This document shows positions 4,572 to 58,739 of a DNA stretch of 64,000 nucleotides, one piece after another. The translations under genes and the position numbers were made by a program. The notes under the pieces are model-generated. The model had not been told where the DNA came from, ran no database searches, and saw only the letters and a program-made list of their open reading frames with translations. The stretch is taken from the NCBI RefSeq assembly GCF_030013595.1, contig NZ_CP122768.1. One strand, given 5' to 3'. The stretch comes from Escherichia coli. GTDB taxonomy: Bacteria; Pseudomonadota; Gammaproteobacteria; Enterobacterales; Enterobacteriaceae. Within the stretch, counting starts at the first letter, position 1. Each line of letters begins with the position of its first letter.

Positions 4572-7500
4572 TTAGTCATTTTGTTGACAGAAAACAGCTA
4601 TCTCCTGGTCCAGCTCTGCAATGTGTTCTTTAACAGAGTTCAGCAGCTGAAGAATTTCAGGCTTACTGTCATCTGAAACAGGTGTTATTTCTAACTGATG
4701 GCTAATATTAATCAACTTTTGCAAATTCAGGATGTTAGCCGCACCGTGGATGCGATGAATACACTGATGGAAAGTTCTGTTGTCGCCAGCTTCTAGTGCA
4801 TGAAACGCAGCGGGTAGATCTTTATGCGTTTCATGCTGGAAAGTCATGAGAATCTCCTGCATCAGTTGTAGATCGTTCGCCGTATTATTTTTCAGGGCCT
4901 CGATATCAAGGTGGCGATACTGAGGTGCAATAGGCGCAACCTGGTGTAACTGACTTAAATGTGTTTTCAGTACATCCAGGGTCAACGGTTTGAACAAACA
5001 TAAGTTCATGCCGCAATTTAACCCTTTTTCACGTTCGTTAGCCTGTGCGTTGGCTGTAAGCCCCCAGATGGGTAAGGCCGAATTTTGCTCACGGAGTTTG
5101 CGAGTCAACTCAAAACCATCCATATTCGGCATATTAACGTCAGTAATAAGCAGATCATAATGTTGCATACTGACTTTGTGTAGCGCTTGCACACCATCAG
5201 TGGCTTCATCAACATCATATCCTAATAGATTTAGCTGGCGTTTGAGTAATAGCCTGTTGGTCGGATGATCATCCGCGATTAATATGCTCAACTTTTCAGG
5301 GAGTGTCATAGGTTGTTCTGCTTTTGCCTCGACAGTCGCCACTTGTTGGGTAATTTCTACCGGGATTGTGATCGTAAATGTCGTTCCTATGCCTGGATGA
5401 CTTTCTAATGACAAATCGCCCTGCATGTTTTTAATTAATTCTTTGCAGATCATTAAGCCTAAACCAGAACCTGTTTGCTGACGACCTGCACTTGTTTGGC
5501 TATAGCGTTTAAACAGTTGTTGTTGTTCTTCCTGCGATAATCCACTTCCAGAATCCATAATCGTCATTTTGATTACAGCGTGGTTGTCATCAATGTTAAC
5601 CAGGGAGGTCGTAATTTTTACTGCCCCCTCGGTGGTAAATTTGAGAGCATTGCTCAGTAAATTAGATAAGACCTGCTTAAACGCCTGAGGGTCGATCTTA
5701 ACCAGGTAATGTTCAGGAAACGTACTGCTGCAACTTAATGCGATGGATTTGCTTGCAGCAATCGCACCGAAAGAGTGACAAGTGTTCTGGACTAAAGTAG
5801 GGATATCGACCCATTGTGGTTGAAGTTGATAGTTACCCGACTCAATTTTGTCGACATCAAGGATTTCACCAATTAAGCCGAGGAGTGATTGTCCGGTGGC
5901 GTAGGCAAGTGAAATCGCCTCCACCCGTTGTTCCTTGCTAAGACCAGAACCCGACAGAAGTTCCAGGAAGCCCATAATGGAGCTTATTGGTGTTCTTATT
6001 TCGTGACTCATTGTTGCCAGAAACTGACTTTTTGCGACAGTTGCATTGATCGCTTTATTTCTCTCTACTTCGAGAGCGTGAATTAAATCACGTGTCTCGG
6101 TAATATCTTGCCAACCACAAATATAAACAGCATGATCGCTGGCTGGCAGATTGCATAATGTATGCCAGTGATTAATGCATCTTTTCTCGATGCCATTATC
6201 AATTTCAAATACCTGTGTGTATATTGTTCGATTTTCTTTCGTTTCTGCTGTGACTTCATGCGCATTAGAAAAAACATCTTTAAAGGGTGAGTCACTGTTT
6301 TCTAATGGTAACATTGCATTTTTGTAGTAATCCGCAGTGAAATAATGTTCAAAAGCACTATTATGACTAATGACATTACCTTGCCAGTTTACAACATAAG
6401 TTGGATTCGGTAAGGAATCCGAGAGTGCTTTTCGGAATGATATTTGGTTTTCTAAATCACCCTGAATGACTTTACGACGACGAACTGAGCGTAACAGGTA
6501 GAATCCCCATAAAAGGCTACTGCCAACTAATAAAACGGATAATGTCGTGACAATATAAAATTGCTCGCTATAGAGGTCCCATGTGTCAATGGTCACATTG
6601 GGCATTTTAATCCATTTTTCCGTCAGGCGCAGAACTTCGCTTGGGGGAATTGCATTCAGAGCTTTATTAATAATATCCTTAAGTTCCGGTTCTCCGCGAG
6701 GAAAAGCGAACGAAAGCGATGCATTCTGAACGCCGGGAATAAGAAAATGATAAAGTTCATTAGGATAGTAATGGTCGATCATGTAACGCGAATTTAGCTG
6801 TGTCGCGACCAGAGCATCAAGTTCACCTTCCTTGACCTTGTGAAATGCAGCGCTGGCGTTATCGACTTTTATCCACTCTACCTCCGGATACATCTCTTTT
6901 AATTGCGAATGCAGCTCATAATAATATGGAATGGCAACTTTCATTCCTTTTTTTAATGTTTGTTCACTGTCAGGCGCTTTTTGCATGACAAAAACGTAAG
7001 GCGTTGTTATGAAGGCTTCAGCAAATAAAACATTATTTTCTCTATCTTCACTATAAATAGCACCGGGTAATATATCCCATCCGCCGGGATTCAGCTGTGT
7101 TCCAGCATGGATATTGTGTGAAACGGTGATCGGAGAAAAATTTAAACCTGTTTGCAAGGTAATAATATTAAGAATATCCCCCATAACGCCCCGAACCGAG
7201 CCATTTTCATCCGTCATAGAATAGGGAGGGGAGTAAGGATTTTCCAACACCTTTAAATCGGGATGCTGCTTAATCCACTGTTTTTCATGTTCAGTGAGTT
7301 CTAATGGTTTGTTCAGAAAGGCCAGGTTTCCTGTATCAAGCCAATTTTGTGATACTTCATAGCGAACTTCGTTTGTCAAAGCATCAACAAATCGATTGAG
7401 TACTTCATTAAGAACGACAGATTCTTTTCTGGTCAAGAAAAAATTATATTGACGCGGTGAGTTATAATATTTCACTACATTTAAGGAGTGAGTGAAATAG

Positions 7501-19230: not shown

Positions 19231-19431
19231 TTACCCATTGGCGCGGCTTAAGAGCTTATTTTTGAATTCACAATGGTCACGATATAACCATCTTGCTCGC
19301 CCGTGGATAACTTTGGCTTTTGGCAGGTCGCCGGACTTAATCCGGTCATAGATGAAGGTTTTACCGAATCCAGTATCGGCCATGATGAATTTCAAATCAA
19401 CCAGTGAATCAGGCTGTAGTTCGTGTTGCAT
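19231..19431 (-). CDS. AlpA-family phage transcriptional regulator / putative excisionase
   Basis: 66-aa ORF with small HTH (…LKFIMADTGFGKTFIYDRIKSGDLPKAK…); adjacent to attL. Confidence 0.55.
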   Translation of the reverse strand: MQHELQPDSLVDLKFIMADTGFGKTFIYDRIKSGDLPKAKVIHGRARWLYRDHCEFKNKLLSRANG

Positions 19432-19473
19432 GAGTGCTATCTCCGAATAGGGAATCGAACCTGCAAATCAGGC

Positions 19474-25397: not shown

Positions 25398-26255
25398 TTA
25401 TCGTTTATTTCTTTGATGTTTCTTTGCTGACTCAGCTTGAGTGTTTCCATACCTGCGTTTACCGCTATTGTTTTTTCCTCTAGGCTTGCCTTTTTTTCGA
25501 TCTTCCCACCAGTCAGGTGCCGGGTCTGGCTCAACATGTAAAGCATCGGCAAGTCCTGATATCAAGCTGTATGACTGAACTCCATCAATGTGCTCTGACA
25601 GTGATGGGGTAACATTCTGTCTTAGTGGATCAAGAATAAAATCAATACCTTTAATTCTGGCGTGTTTGGCGGCAGGCACAAAGTCTGAGTCCCCAGCAAC
25701 AAGGACAATTACATCAACAAGTTTTTCATAAGCTAAAGTCGTGATATCCATCCCTAGCTTGATATCAACTTGTTTTTGTTTGATGTCATAGTAAAAATCA
25801 TCATTTGTCAGTTCATCCCATTTTTTCGTTCCTTTCATCAGAGCATCAAGGGAGAATGTAGTTAGTTGCCATCGCTTATTATCAACAAGATTCCCTAATC
25901 TTAAGGCTGTTTTTCGAGTTTTTCTTAACTCTTCATGCAGCTCCGTTCTCAGAATATATGATTTTTCGAGTTTGAAATTCTTGCGACCAGGCGTCTTATT
26001 GCCAGGCTCAGGAAGTGGAAGGCGTGTTTGAATGTCGAGTGGTGGACAGTCATAGAAGTAAATTCTATAAAGCTCAAGCGGTTCCCTACGTTCTTGTGAT
26101 TGACGTTTTCCATTAAGATGGGAAAGAACCATTGACCATATTACTTTCATTATGCATTGCGCAGTCAGTTCATGCTCGGCGAAGTGTTTACGATGCGTAG
26201 CATGAACACGCTGCATGAAAAAACCCGCATCAATTAAAATTGCTGCTTTCTTCAT
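25398..26255 (-). CDS. NYN-domain (LabA/PIN-like) putative nuclease, in the position lambda uses for rexAB
   Basis: 285 aa; N-terminal MKKAAILIDAGFF and VIVLVAGDSDFVPAAKHARIKGIDFIL motifs typical of NYN domains; lies between cI and the pL/N region. Confidence 0.65.
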   Translation of the reverse strand: MKKAAILIDAGFFMQRVHATHRKHFAEHELTAQCIMKVIWSMVLSHLNGKRQSQERREPLELYRIYFYDCPPLDIQTRLPLPEPGNKTPGRKNFKLEKSYILRTELHEELRKTRKTALRLGNLVDNKRWQLTTFSLDALMKGTKKWDELTNDDFYYDIKQKQVDIKLGMDITTLAYEKLVDVIVLVAGDSDFVPAAKHARIKGIDFILDPLRQNVTPSLSEHIDGVQSYSLISGLADALHVEPDPAPDWWEDRKKGKPRGKNNSGKRRYGNTQAESAKKHQRNKR

Positions 26256-26382: not shown

Positions 26383-27042
26383 TCACCCAAACGTCTCTTC
26401 AGGCCACTGACTAGCGATAACTTTCCCCACAACGGAACAACTCTCATTGCATGGGATCATTGGGTATTGTGGGTTTAGTGGCTGTAGAAACACCTGACCG
26501 CTATCCCTGATCAGTTTCTTGAAGGTAAACTCATCACCACCAAGTCTGGCTATACAGAAATCGCCTGGCTCAACAGCCTGCTCAGGGTCAACCAGAATTA
26601 ACATCCCGTCAGGAAAGCTGGGCTTGGATCCTGTTGGTGCGGTCATGGAATTACCTTCAACCTCAAGCCAGAATGCAGAGCCACTGGCTTTTTTGGTTGT
26701 GCTTACCAATCTCTCCGCATCGCCTTTGGTAAAGGTTCTGAGTTCTGGAGAGAACATCCCAGCCTGAACATGAGAAAATACAGGGTACTCATATTGTTTT
26801 TTAACTGGGGCCGATGAGTATTCGCCAACAGGTGAAAATGTCCCGTCGTGGTTGAATGATATGTTATCAATACCAAGGTATTTAAACACCACACCAATAT
26901 CACTAAGAGATGGATGACGAGATCCGCGCAACCAGTGTCCAATCCCACCCTGCGTCATACCTAGCTCTTCGGCTAACTTCTCTTGAGTTATGCCGAGCTC
27001 TTTCATTCTGGATCTAGCCAGTTCATACCATTTCATTTTCAT
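26383..27042 (-). CDS. cI: cI-type prophage repressor (HTH_XRE + S24 LexA-like autopeptidase)
   Basis: N-terminal HTH (…[25 protein letters not shown]…) and C-terminal S24 peptidase-like domain; start could also be 27084 or 27036. Confidence 0.85.
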
Positions 27043-27152
27043 GTCCTTATTATTACGCTCTGTACTGGAACCATCAATGCACAATGTGTATTTTTGCTTG
27101 TATTTGGAAAGTACATATTGTATTTTTTATTCGAGGTTACTATGGAGGGCAT

Positions 27153-29778: not shown

Positions 29779-30237
29779 TTGGGGGAGAGGGAAGTCATGA
29801 AAAAACTAACCTTTGAAATTCGATCTCCAGCACATCAGCAAAACGCTATTCACGCAGTACAGCAAATCCTTCCAGACCCAACCAAACCAATCGTAGTAAC
29901 CATTCAGGAGCGCAACCGCAGCTTAGACCAAAATCGGAAGCTTTGGGCTTGCCTTGGTGACGTTTCGCGTCAGGTTGAATGGCATGGTCGCTGGCTGGAT
30001 GCAGAAAGCTGGAAGTGTGTGTTTACCGCAGCATTAAAGCAGCAGGATGTTGTTCCTAACCTTGCCGGGAATGGCTTTGTGGTAATAGGCCAGTCAACCA
30101 GCAGGATGCGTGTAAACGAATTTGCGGAGCTATTAGAGCTTATACAGGCATTCGGTACAGAGCGTGGCGTTAAGTGGTCAGACGAAGCGAGACTGGCTCT
30201 GGAGTGGAAAGCGAGATGGGGAGATCGGGCTGCATGA
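29779..30237 (+). CDS. ninB: NinB (Orf-family recombination mediator)
   Basis: 152-aa ORF MKKLTFEIRSPAHQQNAIHAVQQILPDPTKPIVVTIQERNRSLDQNRKLWA... Confidence 0.85.
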   Translation: MGEREVMKKLTFEIRSPAHQQNAIHAVQQILPDPTKPIVVTIQERNRSLDQNRKLWACLGDVSRQVEWHGRWLDAESWKCVFTAALKQQDVVPNLAGNGFVVIGQSTSRMRVNEFAELLELIQAFGTERGVKWSDEARLALEWKARWGDRAA

Positions 30238-30761
30238 CTATCAAATCAAATACGCCAGCACACGACAAGGACTGCTGGCAAACGCCGCTTTGGCTTTTTG
30301 ATGCACTGGATATTGAGTTTGGATTCTGGCTGGATTCGGCAGCGAGCGACAAAAATGCTCTGTGTGCTCACTGGCTAACTGAGGCCGACGACGCGCTCAA
30401 TTCTGAGTGGGTAAGCCACGGTGCAATCTGGAATAACCCACCGTACAGCAATATCAGGCCGTGGGTGGAAAAAGCCGCTGAGCAGTGCATACAACAGCGA
30501 CAGACGGTAGTGATGCTTGTGCCAGAGGATATGTCAGTCGGATGGTTCAGCAAGGCTCTGGAGAGTGTCGACGAAGTTCGCATTATCACTGATGGACGGA
30601 TTAATTTTATCGAACCATCGACGGGGCTGGAGAAGAAGGGAAACAGCAAAGGCTCCATGCTGCTGATTTGGCGACCGTTCATCAGTCCTCGACGGATGTT
30701 TACTACCGTATCCAAAGCGGCATTGATAGCGATCGGGCAGGGCGTCAGGAGGGCGGCATGA
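30234..30761 (+). CDS. Phage DNA N6-adenine methyltransferase (Dam-like, NPPY motif), orphan
   Basis: 176 aa from internal ATG overlapping the ninB stop (ATGA); contains NPPY catalytic motif and an SAM-binding-like segment. Confidence 0.7.
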
Positions 30762-31338: not shown

Positions 31339-31507
31339 CCCATCCCAAACCCTTCAATACCAGAAAGAAAGCGTCGAGCGAGCTTTAACGTGCGCTAACT
31401 GCGGTCAGAAGCTGCATGTGCTTGAAGTTCATGTGTGTGAGCACTGCTGCGCAGAACTGATGAGCGATCCGAATAGCTCAATGTACGAGGAAGAAGACGA
31501 TGAATGA
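31331..31507 (+). CDS. ninF: NinF-like zinc-binding protein
   Basis: MLSPSQTLQYQKESVERALTCANCGQKLHVLEVHVCEHCCAELMSDPNSSMYEEEDDE. Confidence 0.6.
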   Translation: MLSPSQTLQYQKESVERALTCANCGQKLHVLEVHVCEHCCAELMSDPNSSMYEEEDDE

Positions 31508-32222
31508 GTTAATAAATGGCAATGCCATCAAAATGACAAGCATTGAAATCGCTGAGTTGGTGGGTAAGCGTCATGACAATGTGAAACGTACCATCGAAAC
31601 GCTGGCTAAAAATGGTGTTATCCGGCTTCCTCAAATTGAGGTTTCCGAAAGAATCAATAACTTAGGGTTCAATGTTCAGTACGAGCATTACGTCTTCGAA
31701 GGCGAACAAGGTAAGCGAGATAGTATTGTTGTTGTTGCCCAGTTGTCGCCAGAGTTCACCGCTCGCCTTGTTGACCGCTGGCGAGAGCTTGAAGAAACTG
31801 CGGCTAATATCCCCAAAACGCTACCAGAAGCGTTGCGCCTTGCTGCTGATCTTGCTGAGCAGAAAATGCAACTGGAAAACCAGCTCGCAATTGCCGCACC
31901 TAAAGTTGAGTTTGCCGATCGTGTTGGCGAGGCCAGCGGAATTTTGATTGGAAACTTTGCAAAGGTTGTTGGAATTGGTCAAAACAAACTGTTTGCGTGG
32001 ATGCGCGATCACAAAATCCTTATTGCTTCAGGTTCCCGGCGCAATGTGCCAATGCAGGAATATATGGATCGCGGCTATTTCACAGTGAAAGAAACAGCGG
32101 TCAATACAAATCACGGAATACAGATATCGTTCACCACAAAAATCACCGGGCGTGGCCAACAGTGGCTGACCAGAAAGCTGCTCGATAACGGAATGCTGAA
32201 AGTAACAGGGGAGGCTGCTTAA
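31500..32222 (+). CDS. Rha-family / KilA-C domain phage regulatory protein (antirepressor-like)
   Basis: 240 aa; N-terminal MNELINGNAIKMTSIEIAELVGKRHDNVKRTIETLAKNGVI (Rha-like) and a KilA-C-like C-terminal half. Confidence 0.6.
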   Translation: MNELINGNAIKMTSIEIAELVGKRHDNVKRTIETLAKNGVIRLPQIEVSERINNLGFNVQYEHYVFEGEQGKRDSIVVVAQLSPEFTARLVDRWRELEETAANIPKTLPEALRLAADLAEQKMQLENQLAIAAPKVEFADRVGEASGILIGNFAKVVGIGQNKLFAWMRDHKILIASGSRRNVPMQEYMDRGYFTVKETAVNTNHGIQISFTTKITGRGQQWLTRKLLDNGMLKVTGEAA

Positions 32223-33950: not shown

Positions 33951-34025
33951 GGGTCAGTCGTATAAAGGTCATTACGGAAGGCTGTTAACCTTCTTATCGT
34001 GGTTCGAGTCCACGCTGTCCCGCCA
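33951..34025 (+). tRNA. Candidate phage-encoded tRNA (anticodon GTT, Asn-like); atypical D-arm and one acceptor-stem mismatch
   Basis: Manual fold: acceptor GGGTCAG/CTGTCCC, anticodon stem GAAGG/CCTTC with loop CTGTTAA, T-arm CGTGG-TTCGAGT-CCACG, 3' GCCA. Confidence 0.45.
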
Positions 34026-34030
34026 AATAT

Positions 34031-34106
34031 GCTGGTTTAGCTCCAATGGTAGAGCGGTCGCCTTGTAAGCGAATGGGTAGCGGTTCAAGTCCGTTAACCA
34101 GCACCA
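34031..34106 (+). tRNA. Candidate phage-encoded tRNA (anticodon TGT, Thr-like)
   Basis: Manual fold: acceptor GCTGGTT/AACCAGC, D-arm GCTC-CAATGGTA-GAGC, anticodon loop CTTGTAA, T-arm AGCGG-TTCAAGT-CCGTT, 3' ACCA. Confidence 0.5.
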
Positions 34107-35132: not shown

Positions 35133-35596
35133 GCAGAGTAACCGCGATTATCTCCGCTCTGGTTATTTGCATCATCGTCTGCCTGTCATGGGCTGTTAAT
35201 CATTACCGTGATAACGCCATCGCCTACAAAGAACAGCGAGATAAAAAAGTCAGTGAGCTGAAGCAGGCGACCGCCACCATTACTGACATGCAGCAGCGCC
35301 AGCGTTCTGCTGATGCGCTCGATGCTAAATACACGAAGGAGTTAGCTGATGCGAAAGCTGAAAATGATGCTCTTCGGCGCAAGCTTGATAATGGTGGTCG
35401 GGTGTTCGTCAAAGGAAAATGCCCTGTGCCATCCTCAGCCGAAACCTCCGGCGCCTCCGGCATGGGCAATGATGCCACCGTCGAACTCTCTCCAGTTGCT
35501 GGACGAAACGTTCTCGGTGTCCGGGACGGAATTATCCGCGACCAAACAGCACTGAGAACGCTTCAGGAATACATCAGGACGCAATGCCTTCGATGA
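35129..35596 (+). CDS. Rz: Spanin inner-membrane subunit Rz
   Basis: 155 aa with N-terminal TM segment and coiled coil; overlaps R stop. Confidence 0.85.
35349..35555 (+). CDS. Rz1: Spanin outer-membrane lipoprotein Rz1 (embedded in Rz, +1 frame)
   Basis: [21 protein letters not shown]... lipobox-like signal and proline-rich body, nested within Rz. Confidence 0.6.
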
Positions 35597-35941
35597 TAGC
35601 GATAATTTTACTCATCATCCTTCACATCTGGCTCTGTAGACAGGGTGGTGATCACTTCTGGAGTGAATCCAGATTAAACATCTCATTGCTGATGCTTGAA
35701 GTTGAGCATCTGGCGCGCGGTAAGGGGCTGCGTTGAGATAAGAGCCAGTCATTACAAATACCAGGATTTAGCCTCGCATTCGCGGGGCTTTTTTATATCT
35801 GCAACAAACGCGCTTCACACGCGCGACTTATGAACACAGAACCTTTCAGGATGACCCTTGAGGATGCCGGTTTGGTGATCGGTGCCTTTCTGTGGGCCGG
35901 AATCCTGTGTGACAAGGTTCATCACTAAAAGGTGAGCACTG

Positions 35942-36484
35942 ATGAATTATCCAACTATCGTTAACGGCATCGATTTCCGAGAACTGATTTTTGTGGCAAA
36001 CAACGATCCGGTTACAGATTCTTTTATGGTGGCAAAAGCATTTGGAAAGCTGCCGAAGAACGTGGTTCGTGACATTGAGCGAACCATAGAAGCTTGCCCT
36101 CCTGAGTTTGATACAAAGCTCAACTTTGAGCTTTGCTATAAAAACAATGAGTTACAGAATGGTAAGCCGCAAAAATTCTACCGTCTACGCAAGGATGGGT
36201 TGATGCTTTTGGTTATGTCCTACACCAAAAAAGAAGCAATGCGTATCAAAATTGCTTACATCAACGCATTTAACTGGATGTACGCCATGCTTCAGGTTGG
36301 TCATCGTCAATTTGAAGAAGAGAGAAATGCCGTAATGCTGGAGTACATGAAAGAGAAGGATGTTGCCAGCATGTCAGGTCGCCTGCTAAATCGCTGGGGC
36401 AAAATTAAGAAGCCACAGTTGCTGGCTAGAATTGAACGCCTTGAACAGCACGGGCAAACCGTAATCCCCGGACTCATCAATTAA
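35942..36484 (+). CDS. Rha-family phage regulatory protein (second copy of the fold in this prophage)
   Basis: 180 aa MNYPTIVNGIDFRELIFVANNDPVTDSFMVAKAFGKLPKNVVRDIERTIE...; between the lysis cassette and terminase, as in P22. Confidence 0.6.
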   Translation: MNYPTIVNGIDFRELIFVANNDPVTDSFMVAKAFGKLPKNVVRDIERTIEACPPEFDTKLNFELCYKNNELQNGKPQKFYRLRKDGLMLLVMSYTKKEAMRIKIAYINAFNWMYAMLQVGHRQFEEERNAVMLEYMKEKDVASMSGRLLNRWGKIKKPQLLARIERLEQHGQTVIPGLIN

Positions 36485-36691: not shown

Positions 36692-36934
36692 ATGAGTGAA
36701 ATTGATAAAATAATAAATGGTACATGTAACTTTCAATCAATGCCGCCAGGTAGTTATGTAAAACAATGTAGTGAAATAGTTAATGGTCAGCTTGTAATGT
36801 CAAATGCAGGACGTGGAGTTTCTACGGATGAAAAAAAATCAATAAATGAAGCCCTATTAAGCATCAATGTTTTTGACTTGTTTCGCCCATCTTGGGTTAT
36901 TTTGCAAAATAGTAGTCAATTCCCACATTATTGA
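36692..36934 (+). CDS. AT-rich moron ORF (80 aa) of unknown function with its own terminator
   Basis: Low-GC ORF preceded by GAGGT SD; hairpin + T-run terminator 36953..36977. Confidence 0.4.
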   Translation: MSEIDKIINGTCNFQSMPPGSYVKQCSEIVNGQLVMSNAGRGVSTDEKKSINEALLSINVFDLFRPSWVILQNSSQFPHY

Positions 36935-36952
36935 TAAATTAATTAATAAATT

Positions 36953-36977
36953 GGTCGCTCAGGCGGCCTTTTTTATT
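36953..36977 (+). terminator. Rho-independent terminator after the moron ORF
   Basis: ggtcgc-tcag-gcggcc hairpin followed by TTTTTTATT. Confidence 0.55.
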
Positions 36978-37081
36978 GCCATCACAAAAGCCATTCCCTA
37001 CAGAGTGGCTTTGATAATGGCTTATACCCTACACGGGATAACTTAACTGATATCCCTTTTAACGGATAAACGGAGCCAACA

Positions 37082-37403: not shown

Positions 37404-37892
37404 ATGGCAGCACCAAAGGGCAACCGATTTTGGGAGGCCCGCAGTAGTCATGGGCGAAATCCTAAATTCGAATCGCCTGAGGCGCTGTGGGCTGCTTGTT
37501 GTGAATACTTCGAGTGGGTAGAAGCTAACCCGCTATGGGAGATGAAGGCGTTCTCGTATCAGGGTGAAGTGATACAAGAGCCTATCGCCAAGATGCGAGC
37601 GATGACCATTACCGGACTCACTCTGTTCATTGATGTGACGCTTGAAACATGGCGCACATATCGCCTGCGAGAAGATTTATCTGAAGTCGTTACGCGAGCA
37701 GAGCAGGTCATCTACGACCAGAAATTCTCTGGCGCAGCCGCTGACCTTCTCAACGCTAACATCATCGCCCGTGATTTGGGCCTCAAAGAGCAGTCGCAAG
37801 TTGAAGACGTGACACCTGATAAGGGAGATCGCGATAAGCGACGCTCTCGTATCAAGGAGCTATTCAACCGTGGAACTGGACGCGATTCTTGA
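37404..37892 (+). CDS. Terminase small subunit (P22 gp3-like)
   Basis: 162-aa [53 protein letters not shown]...; precedes the large terminase. Confidence 0.8.
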
Positions 37893-52459: not shown

Positions 52460-52879
52460 ATGGCAAGAAAATCTAAAAGGATTATCCCCCCTGCTGAATC
52501 TACAGGTAAGTTAAAGTTAGGGCCGCAGTCAGGGGGGAATTCAGATCAAAAGAAACCGAAATTTTCATTCTGTTACATCCAAAGCTCTCACTGCATAACG
52601 AAATGCCAAAAAGATGAGAAAGCTGGCTTAGCTGATAAATTATACAGATTAAGTCAACTAACATGGGCAGAGATTAAGCAGCAAGGTAGGCATAAGCTTG
52701 GATTTGAGAAGATTGCAAGGGGTGCAATTAAAGCTGGTATCCCCGGTCATATAACGGAAGACGTAGATCATTTCTTGGCTTTTAGATTTGATGATTTGAA
52801 AGCCATGGTTGGTTATCGTCTTGGATCGACATTTTTTGTTATATGGCTTGATAGAGAGTTCAACCTATACAAGCACTAA
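52460..52879 (+). CDS. Unknown partner protein (139 aa), translationally coupled to the Panacea-like gene; candidate toxin/effector
   Basis: ATG 4 bp after the upstream stop; basic N-terminus, Cys/His cluster, C-terminal ...GYRLGSTFFVIWLDREFNLYKH; strong terminator follows. Confidence 0.5.
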   Translation: MARKSKRIIPPAESTGKLKLGPQSGGNSDQKKPKFSFCYIQSSHCITKCQKDEKAGLADKLYRLSQLTWAEIKQQGRHKLGFEKIARGAIKAGIPGHITEDVDHFLAFRFDDLKAMVGYRLGSTFFVIWLDREFNLYKH

Positions 52880-53463: not shown

Positions 53464-53781
53464 CTATTTTTTCTCAGAGCTCATATTGTAATAGGTGGTA
53501 TAAATAGAGATTGATTTCTGACATGCTTCAAGAAATTGCTGCGGAGTCATCCCGAGCCTTGCTTGCTCTGTAGTAAGGAATCTCTGTAAGAATTCATTCC
53601 CACCTGGCATGTTTGTAGATTCTTGGAATATTGCCATTTGTTTGATTGCACCACACATACCAGCCATTTTAGAAGCTATCATGAGGCCTTGTATTTCATC
53701 AAAACTGCTATCGTCTGATTTTGTTTCTGCGTTAGCTATGCTCGAGAGACACAGGAGCAATAGGATAGCGATACGTTTCAT
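53464..53781 (-). CDS. Secreted/periplasmic protein (105 aa, cleavable signal peptide), co-transcribed with the mnt-like gene
   Basis: MKRIAILLLLCLSSIANA signal sequence; start overlaps the mnt-like stop (ATGA). Confidence 0.5.
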   Translation of the reverse strand: MKRIAILLLLCLSSIANAETKSDDSSFDEIQGLMIASKMAGMCGAIKQMAIFQESTNMPGGNEFLQRFLTTEQARLGMTPQQFLEACQKSISIYTTYYNMSSEKK

Positions 53782-54029
53782 TTTTCACCATTGCCATGCA
53801 TACATTTTAACTTCTCAACATCATGCTCAAGCTCTATCAGTCGCGATGCTATAGTTGCAAGATCTAGTGCTTGAATGTGTTTGTTTTTTTCGGTCCATGC
53901 TTCAAGTGCTGCGACCATCTCAGCATTTAATGAACGAGAATTAGCCTCAGCCAGTTCAATAAGACGTTCCTTTATCTCTACAGGAAGCCTCAGATTCACT
54001 TGAGGGTTTTTGTACTTACGATCAGACAT
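53778..54029 (-). CDS. Mnt-like ribbon-helix-helix repressor (Arc/MetJ family)
   Basis: 83 aa; N-terminal ...NLRLPVEIKERLIELAEANSRSLNAEMVAALEAW RHH fold; divergent from the arc/ant pair as in P22 immI. Confidence 0.7.
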   Translation of the reverse strand: MSDRKYKNPQVNLRLPVEIKERLIELAEANSRSLNAEMVAALEAWTEKNKHIQALDLATIASRLIELEHDVEKLKCMHGNGEK

Positions 54030-54104: not shown

Positions 54105-54121
54105 GTATGCGTACCACATAC
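54105..54121. promoter_or_regulatory. Candidate operator: imperfect palindrome GTATGCGTACCACATAC with ATGCGTACC repeated 21 bp upstream
   Basis: In the divergent mnt-like/arc-like intergenic region, just upstream of the arc-like start. Confidence 0.4.
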
Positions 54122-54133
54122 AAAGGAGCAAAA

Positions 54134-54280
54134 ATGAAAGTTAAGACATTAAGGATGCCAGAATGGCTGGAAAAGGCTTTGGAGCAGTCCGCGAAAAAGG
54201 ATGATCGGTCGTTCAGTAATGAGGTATTGAGGAGACTAAAGGAGTCAGTAGCTAAGGATGGAATTGTTTGTCCAGAATGA
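54134..54280 (+). CDS. Arc-like ribbon-helix-helix repressor (48 aa; below ORF-track cutoff)
   Basis: Manual translation MKVKTLRMPEWLEKALEQSAKKDDRSFSNEVLRRLKESVAKDGIVCPE; GGAG SD upstream; precedes the ant-like gene. Confidence 0.55.
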   Translation: MKVKTLRMPEWLEKALEQSAKKDDRSFSNEVLRRLKESVAKDGIVCPE

Positions 54281-54346: not shown

Positions 54347-55276
54347 ATGAAAAGTATAGCAACAGCAGTATCTACTATCAACGTGCCATTCCACGGCGCA
54401 GAGCTTTATGTCGTCAATCACAACGGTGAGCCGTACACCCCAATGAAACCTATCGTTGAAGGTATGGGTATGGATTGGGCTTCACAGTTTACGAAAATAA
54501 AGCAACGGTTTAAAACCTCCATTGTGAAAATCACAATGCAGCTTCCTGGTGATGAACAGTGCCGTGAGATTATTTGTTTGGCACTTCGCAAACTTGCTGG
54601 CTGGCTGCAAACCATCAGTCCAAACAAAGTCCGCCCTGAAATCCGCGACAAGGTAATCCAGTATCAGGAAGAGTGTGACGATGTGCTATACGAGTACTGG
54701 ACTAAAGGCCATGTAGTTAACCCACGCAAAGCTAAAAAGGCGTTGCCGGGTAAAATCACCACTGAACAGCAGGAAGCCATTAAACAACTCGTCATGAGTC
54801 GCGGTCAGTCTCTGCCAAAAGAAAAACAGGCTAAGGCGATGATCACCATGTGGTCGTCACTGAAATCCCATTTTGGATGTTCGTACAAAGAAATCAGTGA
54901 GGAGCAGTTTACCGAAGCACTGTCACTTGCTGCTCGAGTTCCACTTGAAGGTGAGTTCATTGGCAAACAAGAGAAGAAAACCAACGAGCTTTCTGCAAAA
55001 GAAGCAAACAGCCTTGTATGGCTCTGGGATTATGCTAACCGTTCACAGGCATTATTCCGCGAATTGTATCCGGCGCTAAAACAAATTCAATCGAACTATT
55101 CCGGCAGATGCTACGACTACGGTCATGAATTCTCGTATGTTATCGGAATGGCGAGAGACGTTTTAATCAATCACACACGAGATGTTGATATTAATGAGCC
55201 AGACGGACCAACGAATCTTTCCGCATGGATGAGACTTAAGAATAAAGAATTACCTCCTTCAGTACATAACTACTGA
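54347..55276 (+). CDS. Antirepressor (Ant-like)
   Basis: 309-aa ORF following the arc-like gene, in the position of P22 ant. Confidence 0.6.
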
Positions 55277-57348: not shown

Positions 57349-58539
57349 TTATTCATTTTCATCAAGCCAGTCCGCCCACCACTGCATCATTTCTCTGCGC
57401 TTGTCTAGATACTGAGCATGGTTGTAAATCCCACGCACAGATCCGCCGTTGGCATGTGCCAGTTGCACTTCAATAGCGTCAGCAGGCCATTCGTGCTCGT
57501 TCATAATTGTGCTGAATTCATGCCTGAATCCGTGACCGCTTTCCAGACCCTCATAGCCGATTTGTTTGATCACAAGCAATACCGCGTTCTCGCAGATTGG
57601 CTTCTTCTTATCGTTGCGCCCTGCAAAAACAAACTCTGATACTGGTTTGGTGATGGAGCTTAACGTAGTGAGAAGTTCAACCACCTGGTCTGACATCGGG
57701 ACCACATGAATTTTGCGTCCCTTCATCACGCTGGCGTCGATGGTGATAATCCTGTTTTCAAAATCGACGTTCTTCCATTGCATGGAGCGAAGCTCTTTCG
57801 TTCTTAGGGCTGTATAACGTAAAACTTTTGTCGCAATAAGCGATACGATACTTCCTGAAAATGTTGCCAGTGCTTTGTTGAATGCCGGGATCTGGTCTGC
57901 AGGAAGAAACGGGAAGTTCTTCTTGCGGTATCCTTTCATGGCGTCTGCAAGGTCAGGTGCCGGGTTATATTTAGCCCTTCCGGTGACAATAGCGTAACGG
58001 AAAACCTCTCCGCATCTTCTGCGGGCTTTGTTGGCTCGCTCCATTGCACCGCGATCTTCAAACCTGCGGATTACTTCAAGAAGTTGCATCGGCTCAATAT
58101 CCTGAATTTCAAGACCGCCGATGATGGGTAAAATGTCGTCATCAAACATTTTGGCAAGTTCAGTCGCATACCCTACAGACCAGACTTGCTTCTTGTGCTC
58201 GTACCATTCCTTGTAAATGGCGCTAAAGGAATTGTTGTTAGACGAAGCCTTTTTCGCTTTTACCGGATCGATGCCAACCGAGATGTCTTTCCTCGCAGTC
58301 CATGCTTTATCCCTTGCCTCTTGCAAAGTCATAAGCGGATATTTTCCGACGGTCAGGATTTTCTCCTTACCGTCAATCTTGTAGCGAAGCTGCCATACCT
58401 TTTTCCCGGATACAGGGACATAAAGGTACAATCCATTACCATCGAGAAGGCGGTATGGTTTTTCTTTCGGCTTTGCTGCTTCAATCTGCTTAACGGTGAG
58501 CATGGGTAAAAATCCGGTGGGTAAAATTATTTTATCCAC
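57349..58539 (-). CDS. intS: Tyrosine integrase, P4-type (IntS-like); start possibly at internal Met 58503
   Basis: ...MLTVKQIEAAKPKEKPYRLLDGNGLYLYV... with C-terminal catalytic region (HGFRH ... Y); directly adjacent to argW. Confidence 0.9.
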   Translation of the reverse strand: MDKIILPTGFLPMLTVKQIEAAKPKEKPYRLLDGNGLYLYVPVSGKKVWQLRYKIDGKEKILTVGKYPLMTLQEARDKAWTARKDISVGIDPVKAKKASSNNNSFSAIYKEWYEHKKQVWSVGYATELAKMFDDDILPIIGGLEIQDIEPMQLLEVIRRFEDRGAMERANKARRRCGEVFRYAIVTGRAKYNPAPDLADAMKGYRKKNFPFLPADQIPAFNKALATFSGSIVSLIATKVLRYTALRTKELRSMQWKNVDFENRIITIDASVMKGRKIHVVPMSDQVVELLTTLSSITKPVSEFVFAGRNDKKKPICENAVLLVIKQIGYEGLESGHGFRHEFSTIMNEHEWPADAIEVQLAHANGGSVRGIYNHAQYLDKRREMMQWWADWLDENE

Positions 58540-58664: not shown

Positions 58665-58679
58665 TGGTGTCCCCTGCAG
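58665..58679. repeat. Prophage attR core: 15-bp direct repeat (tggtgtcccctgcag) within the argW 3' end
   Basis: Exact copy of 19143..19157. Confidence 0.7.
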
Positions 58680-58739
58680 GAATCGAACCTGCAATTAGCC
58701 CTTAGGAGGGGCTCGTTATATCCATTTAACTAAGAGGAC
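58665..58739 (-). tRNA. argW: tRNA-Arg (anticodon CCU), argW; prophage attR at its 3' end
   Basis: Reverse complement reads GTCCTCTTAGTTAAATGGATATAACGAGCCCCTCCTAAGGGCTAATTGCAGGTTCGATTCCTGCAGGGGACACCA. Confidence 0.9.

Follow-up and report, generated by a model that had tools for sequence, protein, structure and literature searches.

The roi, rha and ant genes of a P22-like prophage at argW of Escherichia coli and the probable IHF-dependent control of Roi and Rha

Introduction

The question raised by the stretch of Escherichia coli DNA analysed here (64,000 nucleotides of contig NZ_CP122768.1, assembly GCF_030013595.1; hereafter the window) is whether a single prophage carries several antirepressors. 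A sequence-only reading had placed two Rha-family genes and one ant-like gene in this prophage, and had taken these "multiple antirepressor-type genes" as a sign of cross-talk with the repressors of other prophages in polylysogens. In this work the identity, context and relatives of the three genes were analysed, and the functions that may be assigned to their products were weighed.

Results

A P22-like prophage is integrated at argW

The window contains a single complete prophage, a 39.2-kb P22-like element integrated at argW, which is a Lederbergvirus-type mosaic resembling CUS-3, HK620 and Sf101. Its left att core, GGAATCGAACCTGCAA, spans positions 19451..19466 of the plus strand and is an exact 16-bp direct repeat of the right core (58679..58694, plus strand), which lies inside the tRNA-Arg(CCT) gene argW (58665-58739, minus strand) and adjoins the integrase gene (57349-58539, minus strand). 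The att cores annotated in CUS-3, a phage of E. coli K1 RS218, have the same length. CUS-3 matches the present prophage in its layout, with ant, a gene in the rha slot and roi all present, and shares with it the argW-type 16-bp core and an int gene adjoining the tailspike gene. Gally, from the AIEC strain LF82, has rha, mnt and a roi gene with 97% nucleotide identity to the present one, but it lacks arc and ant and is integrated at torS-torT. The tailspike, repressor and rha alleles of both CUS-3 and Gally differ from those found here. A search for the excisionase gene near the left end identified none.

The CI/C2-type repressor of the prophage is encoded at 26383..27084 on the minus strand and combines HTH_3 and Peptidase_S24 domains. 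This autocleavage domain would permit RecA-dependent self-induction without any antirepressor, and hence roi, rha and ant should all be dispensable for self-induction. The search of the window for LexA boxes returned none in the prophage and none near roi, rha or ant; the sole match in the window, at 4666, is at chance level. The window was also scanned for further paralogues and other Bro-network genes, and none were found.

The gene in the nin region is roi

The two Rha-family open reading frames were confirmed exactly at 31500..32222 and 35942..36484, with Phage_pRha (PF09669) above cutoff in both. The first (plus strand, 240 aa, PHROG phrog_63) encodes a Rha-type winged helix-turn-helix (wHTH) followed by an ANT/KilAC domain. 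Its Pfam match to Phage_pRha, at aa 12-99, is a weak pass (36.7 bits against a cutoff of 29.9). The KilA-C domain foreseen in the sequence-only reading was recovered with PF03374 at aa 126-228 (115 bits against a cutoff of 25.3), which corresponds to 31875..32183 of the plus strand. The NCBIfam model of the Rha family, TIGR02681, did not match this protein and matched only the product of the second gene. The N-terminal domain shows 40% identity across 43 aa to that of P22 Rha, and the protein shows 46% identity across 28 aa to phi80 Rha (E 2e-5).

By sequence and position, the gene at 31500..32222 is roi, the orthologue of HK022 roi. The two proteins share 87% amino acid identity over their full length (240/241 aa; E 1e-156). 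The gene was expected in the nin region, and it indeed has ninF (PF05810) on its 5' side and, on its 3' side, a YbcO-like gene and then rusA, ninH and Q. The order ninF-roi-ybcO-rusA-ninH-Q is the same in HK022, HK620, CUS-3, Gally, mEpX1/2 and E212, and HK022 carries ybcO/hkbD after roi, as in the present slot. The start of roi overlaps the ninF stop codon (ATGAATGA) and its own stop codon overlaps the start of the following gene (TAATG). The roi gene was detected in 1109 of 5426 complete E. coli genomes (~20%).

Roi is also annotated in HK620, CUS-3, mEpX1/2 and Stx phages, and the annotation in HK022 and CUS-3 reads "DNA binding protein". HK022 Roi is reportedly the subject of work published by Clerget and Boccard in 1996 (J Bacteriol 178:4077). 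The roi and rha genes of Gally have been treated as transcriptional regulators (PMC9928086).

The C-terminal ~175 aa of the present Roi and of HK022 Roi are almost identical, whereas HK022 Roi differs at aa 22-63, where the recognition helix and wing are predicted, and belongs there to another allele type. A DNA alignment of four alleles confined the strong divergence of HK022 to nucleotides 63-190 of roi (31562..31689, plus strand), with about 96% identity in the remainder, and the protein alignment with HK022 Roi agreed on aa 22-63 as the diverged segment. The allele type present here is common to Gally, CUS-3 and E212, but not HK022, and the nucleotide identity reaches 99.8% with phage E212 as against 97% with Gally. 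Since the predicted recognition region is unlike that of HK022, the DNA target of the present Roi may differ.

In the AlphaFold2 (AF2) secondary structure, this segment takes in helix 2 and the wing of the N-terminal wHTH. The model was built on a 6-sequence alignment and is of moderate quality (pLDDT 65.8), and only its topology was used, a helix-helix-beta-hairpin at aa 14-65; the best-modelled part is aa 150-229, within the KilAC domain (pLDDT about 80-87). A Foldseek search of the PDB with this model gave no match at E < 0.1, with faint PadR/MarR-like hints. Sequence searches of the PDB gave no match for Roi and chance-level matches only for the product of the second gene, and with PADLOC neither product resembled a known defence protein.

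An IHF consensus is conserved inside roi

A perfect IHF consensus (AATCAATAACTTA) is present inside roi at 31652..31664 of the plus strand. It is the sole perfect match to WATCAANNNNTTR in the 64-kb window, where 4.35 were expected; one-mismatch sites occur at chance level (83 found, 80.7 expected). The consensus occupies the same position (nucleotides 153-165) in HK022, Gally and CUS-3, that is, in four of four alleles, and it forms a conserved island within the segment in which HK022 has diverged. Part of this conservation is explained by constraint at the protein level, because the consensus overlaps the codons of a conserved I-N-x-L-G motif. The element at 31652-31664 is a candidate, and probably a genuine, IHF site. 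HK022 Roi reportedly binds within its own gene, beside an IHF site.

P22 rha, which contains a perfect intragenic IHF consensus, carries the same 16-mer as roi, AATCAATAACTTAGGG; no other identical stretch in their alignment, which has 57% nucleotide identity, is as long. In contrast, the rha gene of the present prophage lacks a perfect consensus and shows a match with one mismatch, which is at chance level. The rha alleles of Sf101, Gally and CUS-3 have no perfect intragenic consensus, and none was found within phi80 rha, contrary to a prediction stated beforehand. An intragenic IHF site as the hallmark of all IHF-sensitive Rha-family genes was consequently rejected, as phi80 and four other rha alleles fail to show it.

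The KilAC domain of Roi resembles those of P1 Ant and Listeria phage A118 gp42

The KilAC region of Roi has homologues in P1 and in Listeria phage A118. Residues 73-234 align with the C-terminus of P1 Ant1 with 59% identity and 77% similarity (E 3e-67), and the same region is matched by P1 KilA, with 43-44% identity over the aligned length. The N-terminal part of P1 Ant is unrelated to that of Roi, and P1 Ant has no Rha domain. The two genes also differ in their control: P1 ant is governed by the C4 antisense RNA in the P1 immI region, whereas roi is an internal gene of the nin operon. P1 Ant1/2 is annotated as antagonising the C1 repressor through an Ant1/Ant2/C1 complex; C1, the target of P1 Ant, has no counterpart in the window.

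Roi residues 120-229 and the KilAC domain of gp42 from Listeria phage A118 are 33% identical (E 1e-17). The AriS-like proteins described by Azulay et al. (2022; PMC9043618) explicitly include the pRha + KilAC architecture, and Roi fits this description, although AriS and A118 gp42 belong to Firmicute phages and their N-terminal domain is mostly AntA/AntB instead of the pRha found in Roi. In Listeria, the AriS-like KilAC damps the SOS response on overexpression, and overexpression of gp42 blocks mitomycin-induced lysis, whereas AriS at its native level did not inhibit SOS (PMC9043618). The likeness of the Roi domain to P1 Ant1/2 and to the Listeria domain makes a trans-acting, protein-binding role possible, alongside DNA binding.

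The gene preceding the terminase is rha

The second gene (35942..36484, plus strand, 180 aa, PHROG phrog_518) encodes a Rha wHTH joined to an ORF11CD3 domain. Phage_pRha was matched at aa 25-113 (77 bits, cutoff 29.9), ORF11CD3 (PF10549) at aa 125-176 (91.2 bits, cutoff 25) and TIGR02681 with 85 bits (cutoff 45.95), and neither a KilAC nor a P22_AR domain was found in the Pfam search. By homology and location this gene is rha, as in P22 (orf201) and phi80. With P22 Rha the protein shares 55% identity (E 3e-64), the last ~60 aa, the ORF11CD3 part, being almost the same in both. With phi80 Rha, which lacks an ORF11CD3-type C-terminus, it shares 35% (E 3e-26), in an alignment that ends at aa 157. 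The N-terminal domain is unlike that of P22 Rha and belongs to the Sf101/CUS-3/POCJ13 type; the whole protein is 99.4% identical to Rha of Shigella phage POCJ13. The present rha occurs in 545 of 5426 complete E. coli genomes.

As had been proposed, the gene stands before the terminase genes, between Rz (ending at 35596) and the gene of a gp3-type small terminase (37404-37892; PF16677), a slot common to P22, Sf101, Gally, CUS-3 and phi80. It has a Shine-Dalgarno sequence of its own, AGGTGA at about 35931. A terminator-like GC hairpin with a T-run (35770..35799, plus strand; 8-bp stem with 6 GC pairs, followed by TTTTTTATATC) is located in the gap between the lysis cassette and rha, and a putative terminator is annotated in the corresponding Rz/rha gap of phi80. 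Another terminator-like hairpin with a T-run (36953..36978, plus strand) is found 3' of rha and of a small open reading frame (36692-36934). The promoter scan revealed nothing upstream of rha, and its counts were at chance level (7 against 8.6).

Henthorn and Friedman (1995; J Bacteriol 177:3185) reportedly described the Rha proteins of P22 and phi80 as inhibiting the growth of the phage when the E. coli host is an IHF mutant. The record of phi80 rha carries the note "DNA synthesis inhibition in IHF- hosts".

A BLASTP comparison of Roi with Rha gave E = 0.11, and neither protein recovered the other in a scan of all open reading frames of the window at E <= 1. As judged from these comparisons, Roi and Rha are related at the profile level only. 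The domain that they share, Rha, is a DNA-binding wHTH (PMC8951638) and no antirepressor determinant. What is established for both roi and rha is their orthology, by sequence and by position, together with their domain architecture, operon context and prevalence.

The immI region carries a P22-type ant gene

The ant-like gene reported from an immI-like region is located at 54347..55276 of the plus strand (phrog_245), beside Mnt- and Arc-like genes. Its product contains P22_AR_N (152 bits) and P22_AR_C (104 bits), as does P22 Ant, to which it is 58% identical (E 5e-123) with a diverged middle third (aa ~125-195). The Pfam search detected these domains in Ant alone, and neither in Roi nor in Rha. 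An mnt-like ribbon-helix-helix repressor gene of immI (PF03869, E 3e-10) occupies 53778..54029 of the minus strand, at the position of P22 mnt, and an arc-like gene (54107..54280, plus strand; PF03869, E 2e-5, above cutoff) is divergent from it and directly 5' of ant, as in P22. The mnt and arc-ant genes are situated just 5' of the tailspike gene, as in the P22 immI region, whereas the slot of P22 sieA is occupied by other accessory genes. Judging by its domains and neighbours, ant is a true P22-type antirepressor gene.

Discussion

The arrangement described above is in all likelihood that of a common P22-like prophage which carries the regulators roi and rha and a P22-type ant, with Roi and Rha under IHF-dependent control. 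Roi and Rha may be seen as modular "Bro-network" regulators in which an N-terminal Rha wHTH is joined to a different C-terminal module, KilAC or ORF11CD3. To judge from their orthologues, whose function is known here from paper titles, the phi80 record note and the HK022 and CUS-3 annotation, they would be DNA-binding regulators that the phage can do without and that are synthesised only once the prophage is derepressed. Roi would be produced from the delayed-early nin operon, translationally coupled to both neighbours, and Rha from the late region, its gene lying after Rz and before the terminase genes, with predicted hairpin terminators on either side. Host IHF would keep the activity of both proteins harmless, and when IHF is missing they would block lytic growth and DNA synthesis of the phage. 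The likely route for Roi is binding within its own gene beside the conserved IHF site at 31652-31664. Control of ant would be exerted by Mnt and Arc in immI.

The notion of multiple antirepressor-type genes held for Ant, which belongs to the P22_AR family, but found no support for Rha, and for Roi, whose KilAC half resembles P1 Ant, it is unproven. Within the trio, Ant alone belongs to a family with demonstrated action on heterologous repressors, and polylysogen cross-talk through the immI Ant family is already a published speculation (PMC3121763). It is improbable that Roi, and perhaps Rha, are antirepressors of co-resident prophage repressors through which induction spreads in a polylysogen. 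PHROG and PGAP call the family "anti-repressor", the KilAC half of Roi shares 59% identity with P1 Ant1/2, a proven antirepressor, and Fels-1 FsoA, which is expressed only after derepression, acts in trans on another prophage (PMC3121763). However, what KilAC and AntA/B do exactly is described as unclear, for P1 Ant as well (PMC9043618), Rha contains neither KilAC nor P22_AR, and a P1-type C1 repressor is absent from the window, the repressor of this prophage being of the CI/S24 type. Moreover, dedicated control by an inducing signal, either a LexA box as in Gifsy, 186 and N15 or a repressor or antisense RNA of the immI type, was not found for roi or rha, and the literature surveyed contains neither an experiment on the binding of Roi or Rha to a repressor nor a report of direct repressor binding or inactivation by them.

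The same KilAC domain could point in the opposite direction. Roi might be a dual regulator like AriS, with an N-terminal domain directed at its own phage and a KilAC domain that suppresses the SOS response of the host, probably by way of RecA. The effect on SOS-inducible prophages in the same cell would then be to damp their induction, not to trigger it; the Listeria domain, which damps SOS, would likewise restrain such prophages rather than induce them. This is suggested by the homology to gp42, whose overexpression stops mitomycin-induced lysis, and by the listing of pRha + KilAC among the AriS-like proteins (PMC9043618). Nevertheless, the effect is confined to Listeria and to overexpression, AriS at native level being without SOS inhibition, and an identity of 33% between different phyla is no assurance of a common partner. 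It also counts against this possibility that Roi is made after repressor cleavage, so that any benefit would concern other elements; on balance we consider it doubtful. A rather unlikely alternative is that roi and rha are mosaic cargo of a selfish or neutral kind, Bro-network modules moving from one accessory slot to another, which under normal conditions regulate nothing in this phage. An unregulated DNA-binding protein would then cause the phenotype in IHF mutants only incidentally. Several features are consistent with this: both slots vary among relatives (P22 has ninG/ninY in the roi slot, and the rha slot holds a KilA-N gene in HK620 and GIY-YIG genes in epsilon34 and g341c), the hairpins on either side of rha are moron-like, N-terminal domains have been swapped while the C-terminal modules are almost identical, and roi and rha transcript levels are unaffected in the Gally prophage in macrophages (PMC9928086). 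Conversely, the presence of roi in 20% of E. coli genomes, the 96% mean column identity among roi alleles and the tight translational coupling of roi in the nin operon argue for a selected function.

Earlier descriptions (HK022, P22, phi80, CUS-3, Gally) already cover the roi, rha and ant genes, their positions and their co-occurrence in a single phage. The arrangement is ordinary, the three genes are routinely annotated, and as it stands it matters little. It does bear on how such genes are counted: on Rha/KilAC proteins, "antirepressor" is a family name and not a tested function, so counting genes of this kind overstates the capacity of prophages for cross-talk. The carriers of Roi-type pRha-KilAC proteins, about one in five E. 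coli genomes, include relatives of Stx phages. With little probability, Roi-type pRha-KilAC proteins may be trans-acting modulators of other elements, either by binding RecA and damping SOS or by inactivating C1 repressors of the P1 type, to which the KilAC likeness to P1 Ant would point. If that were true, once a lambdoid prophage had been induced, prophages and P1-like plasmids in the same cell would have their induction threshold reset, and the dose of Roi would be set by IHF at the intragenic roi site. An action of the Roi KilAC domain on RecA or on foreign repressors would thus bear on the coordination of induction in polylysogenic E. coli, including carriers of Stx phages.

Genomic context of roi, rha and ant

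The roi, rha and ant genes are parts of a complete P22-like prophage, bounded by a 16-bp direct repeat (GGAATCGAACCTGCAA) that occurs in the window only at positions 19451 and 58679. The right copy lies within the tRNA-Arg(CCT) gene argW (58665–58739) and is adjoined by the gene of a tyrosine integrase (57349–58539). In map order, the prophage carries Ead/Ea22, Exo (YqaJ), RecT, Gam, gp17 and N; a repressor of the CI type that has a Peptidase_S24 domain, followed by a Cro-like HTH protein and CII; replication genes and the nin region, of which roi is part; Q, a pair of phage tRNAs, the lysis genes, rha and a gp3-type small terminase; and finally head and ejection genes of P22 type, immI, tailspike and int. 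The flanking E. coli DNA includes the csc sucrose genes as well as torI. This TorI-type (KplE1/CPS-53) excisionase gene (19231–19431, minus strand) abuts the prophage outside the left att core (19451–19466), in a flank common to 3658/5426 E. coli genomes; no excisionase of the prophage itself was recognisable within its left end, and excision might draw on this adjacent relic gene in trans.

Several accessory genes were observed. The accessory slot flanked by N and the repressor gene, the usual place of rexAB/sieB-type exclusion genes, holds a 285-aa NYN-domain protein (25398–26255, minus strand), a predicted RNase of phrog_5783 (no function assigned) with a weak PADLOC match to HEC-09 (E 2e-4). 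An orphan DNA methyltransferase-like gene (30174–30761, plus strand; PADLOC oMTase, E 2e-19) lies in the nin region, and genes for tRNA-Asn(GTT) and tRNA-Thr(TGT) (33951–34025 and 34031–34106) lie between Q and the holin gene. A SocA/Panacea-domain, antitoxin-like protein (PF13274; 52006–52455, plus strand) is followed by a 138-aa protein with a weak NsnC match (52463–52879, plus strand); the two occupy the slot of sieA in P22 and are a possible toxin-antitoxin or defence pair. Downstream of mnt, a small gene (53464–53781, minus strand) encodes a 105-aa protein of phrog_19844 (no function assigned) whose N-terminus looks like a signal peptide (MKRIAILLLLCLSSIANA); the gene is a candidate moron expressed during lysogeny.

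Identification of roi and rha

The ORF at 31500–32222 (plus strand) encodes 240 aa, with Phage_pRha at aa 12–99 (36.7 bits against a cutoff of 29.9) and ANT/KilAC at aa 126–228 (115 bits), and was assigned to phrog_63, 'anti-repressor Ant'. Judged by sequence, this gene is roi: its product shares 87% identity with HK022 Roi, which carries the annotation of a DNA-binding protein, with divergence confined to aa 22–63 and the C-terminal ~175 residues almost identical. The order ninF-roi-ybcO/hkbD-rusA-ninH-Q is the same in HK022, HK620, CUS-3, mEpX1/2, E212 and Gally. Since the roi ATG overlaps the ninF stop codon (ATGAATGA) and its TAA overlaps the ATG of the next gene (TAATG), roi is one of the internal genes of the delayed-early operon, is coupled to its neighbours in translation, and is expressed only after derepression.

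The second ORF (35942–36484, plus strand; 180 aa) contains Phage_pRha (aa 25–113, 77 bits) and ORF11CD3 (aa 125–176, 91 bits), belongs to phrog_518, 'Rha-like transcriptional regulator', and was the only one of the two genes to match the NCBIfam Rha model. This gene is rha. Its product shares 99.4% identity with the Rha protein of the Shigella phage POCJ13. Identity to phi80 Rha is 35% across the N-terminal 158 aa, and identity to P22 Rha is 55%; from the latter the N-terminal domain has diverged, whereas the last ~60 residues (ORF11CD3) are near-identical; the less conserved part corresponds to 35942–36300. As in P22, phi80, Sf101, Gally and CUS-3, rha directly follows Rz/Rz1 and precedes the packaging genes, in a variable slot that holds a KilA-N gene in HK620 and GIY-YIG genes in epsilon34 and g341c. 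It has its own Shine-Dalgarno sequence, and strong hairpin terminators are predicted before (35770–35799) and after it (36953–36978), the former at a place equivalent to that of an annotated phi80 terminator. Terminator-like hairpins of both strands face each other between the lysis cassette and rha (35770–35789, plus; 35825–35809, minus; within 35770–35825). These hairpins would insulate rha in a moron-like manner, though rha itself belongs to the late region antiterminated by Q.

The IHF consensus within roi

The perfect IHF consensus WATCAANNNNTTR matched only once in the 64-kb window (4.35 expected), at 31652–31664 inside roi. It was present at the same position in roi of HK022, Gally and CUS-3, which with the window's own gene makes 4/4 roi alleles examined; the perfect matches in the comparison sequences lie at L001 2453–2465, L004 33103–33115, L008 27787–27799 and L003 39835–39847. 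In HK022 roi it forms a conserved island in the strongly diverged nt 63–190, with changes solely at N positions. Protein-level constraint explains this conservation in part, because the consensus is made up of codons for I-N-x-L-G, a conserved motif located in the winged helix-turn-helix wing.

P22 rha and roi share the 16-mer AATCAATAACTTAGGG; no longer stretch is identical in their alignment, which has only 57% nt identity, and an intragenic IHF consensus was therefore predicted in phi80 rha. Against this prediction phi80 rha lacks it, and the consensus was rejected as general to the Rha group; it was also absent from the rha alleles of the window, Sf101, Gally and CUS-3. Of the alleles compared, those of roi and the rha of P22 carry the site; it does not extend to the group as a whole.

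HK022 Roi reportedly binds a site in its own gene, near an IHF site. Orthology, architecture, operon context, prevalence and the conserved IHF consensus were observed directly. Roi and Rha would be accessory DNA-binding regulators made once repression is lifted, the former as a delayed-early and the latter as a late product; their activity would be tolerated only when IHF is present, and IHF-assisted binding within its own gene is the probable route for Roi. The phi80 record remarks of rha 'DNA synthesis inhibition in IHF- hosts', and Henthorn & Friedman (reference listed in PMC8951638) reportedly defined rha by a product 'inhibitory for phage growth in E. coli IHF mutants'.

Searches of the PDB with the Roi and Rha sequences gave no informative match, nor did PADLOC on the two genes. 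The AF2 model of Roi was moderate (pLDDT 65.8) with no significant Foldseek match, and a promoter scan gave counts at chance level.

Proposed antirepressor activity

The sequence-only reading had described two Rha-family genes and an ant-like gene as antirepressor-type genes suggesting cross-talk in polylysogens. That interpretation is partly supported, its anatomy being right. Both Rha-family ORFs are present at the stated positions with Pfam matches, Phage_pRha on both and ANT/KilAC on the first, and so is ant (54347–55276, plus strand; P22_AR_N and P22_AR_C), beside Mnt-like (53778–54029, minus) and Arc-like (54107–54280, plus) genes between the ejection-protein and tailspike genes. The antirepressor label fits ant, 58% identical to P22 Ant, which targets the repressors of P22, L, lambda and 21; it is unsupported for Rha and possible by analogy for Roi. 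Ant is the sole one of the three with an established antirepressor family history. The Roi and Rha proteins are remotely related at most (BLASTP E = 0.11), did not match each other in a HMMER scan of all window ORFs, and no further Bro-network or antirepressor-type genes were found in the window.

The KilAC half of Roi aligns with P1 KilA and with the C-terminus of P1 Ant1/Ant2 (59% identity, E 3e-67), which antagonise C1 in an Ant1/Ant2/C1 complex according to the P1 record; it also resembles KilAC of Listeria phage A118 gp42 (33% identity, E 1e-17). Azulay et al. found that overexpressed KilAC of AriS-like proteins, including gp42, blocks the SOS response; the family includes pRha+KilAC architectures, and what precisely such domains do in P1 Ant was described as still unclear (PMC9043618). 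By analogy with these two precedents of opposite sign, Roi KilAC may therefore be a protein-interaction module. Action of Roi-type proteins in trans on RecA/SOS or P1-type repressors seems quite unlikely; expression timing does not preclude trans-action, as Fels-1 FsoA illustrates (PMC3121763). The AriS precedent would predict damped rather than spreading induction. Since the prophage repressor carries an S24 autocleavage domain and no LexA box was found within the prophage, self-induction should follow the lambda/P22 route and require neither roi nor rha nor ant.

Distribution and allelic variation

The finding as a whole has already been described. Phage CUS-3, from E. coli K1, is laid out in the same way: its att cores are 16 bp long, int stands beside the tailspike gene, and roi, ant and a Rha-slot protein of 203 aa are all encoded, so that one published phage already combines the three genes. 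In Gally of AIEC LF82, roi (97% nt identity) is accompanied by rha and mnt; the authors counted roi and rha among 'five transcriptional regulators' of this phage (PMC9928086). Ant coupling induction among polylysogen prophages has been published as speculation (PMC3121763). In 5426 complete E. coli genomes, roi was found in 1109, with up to four copies per genome (PGAP name 'phage antirepressor KilAC domain-containing protein'), and window-type rha in 545 ('Rha family transcriptional regulator').

Both roi and rha are intragenic mosaics, in which the recognition part varies by allele and the C-terminal modules are near-identical; in roi the differences from HK022 fall in the predicted DNA-recognition part (31562–31689; nt 63–190, aa 22–63). 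If the Roi operator lies beside the IHF site, recognition helix and operator would be swapped as one cassette.
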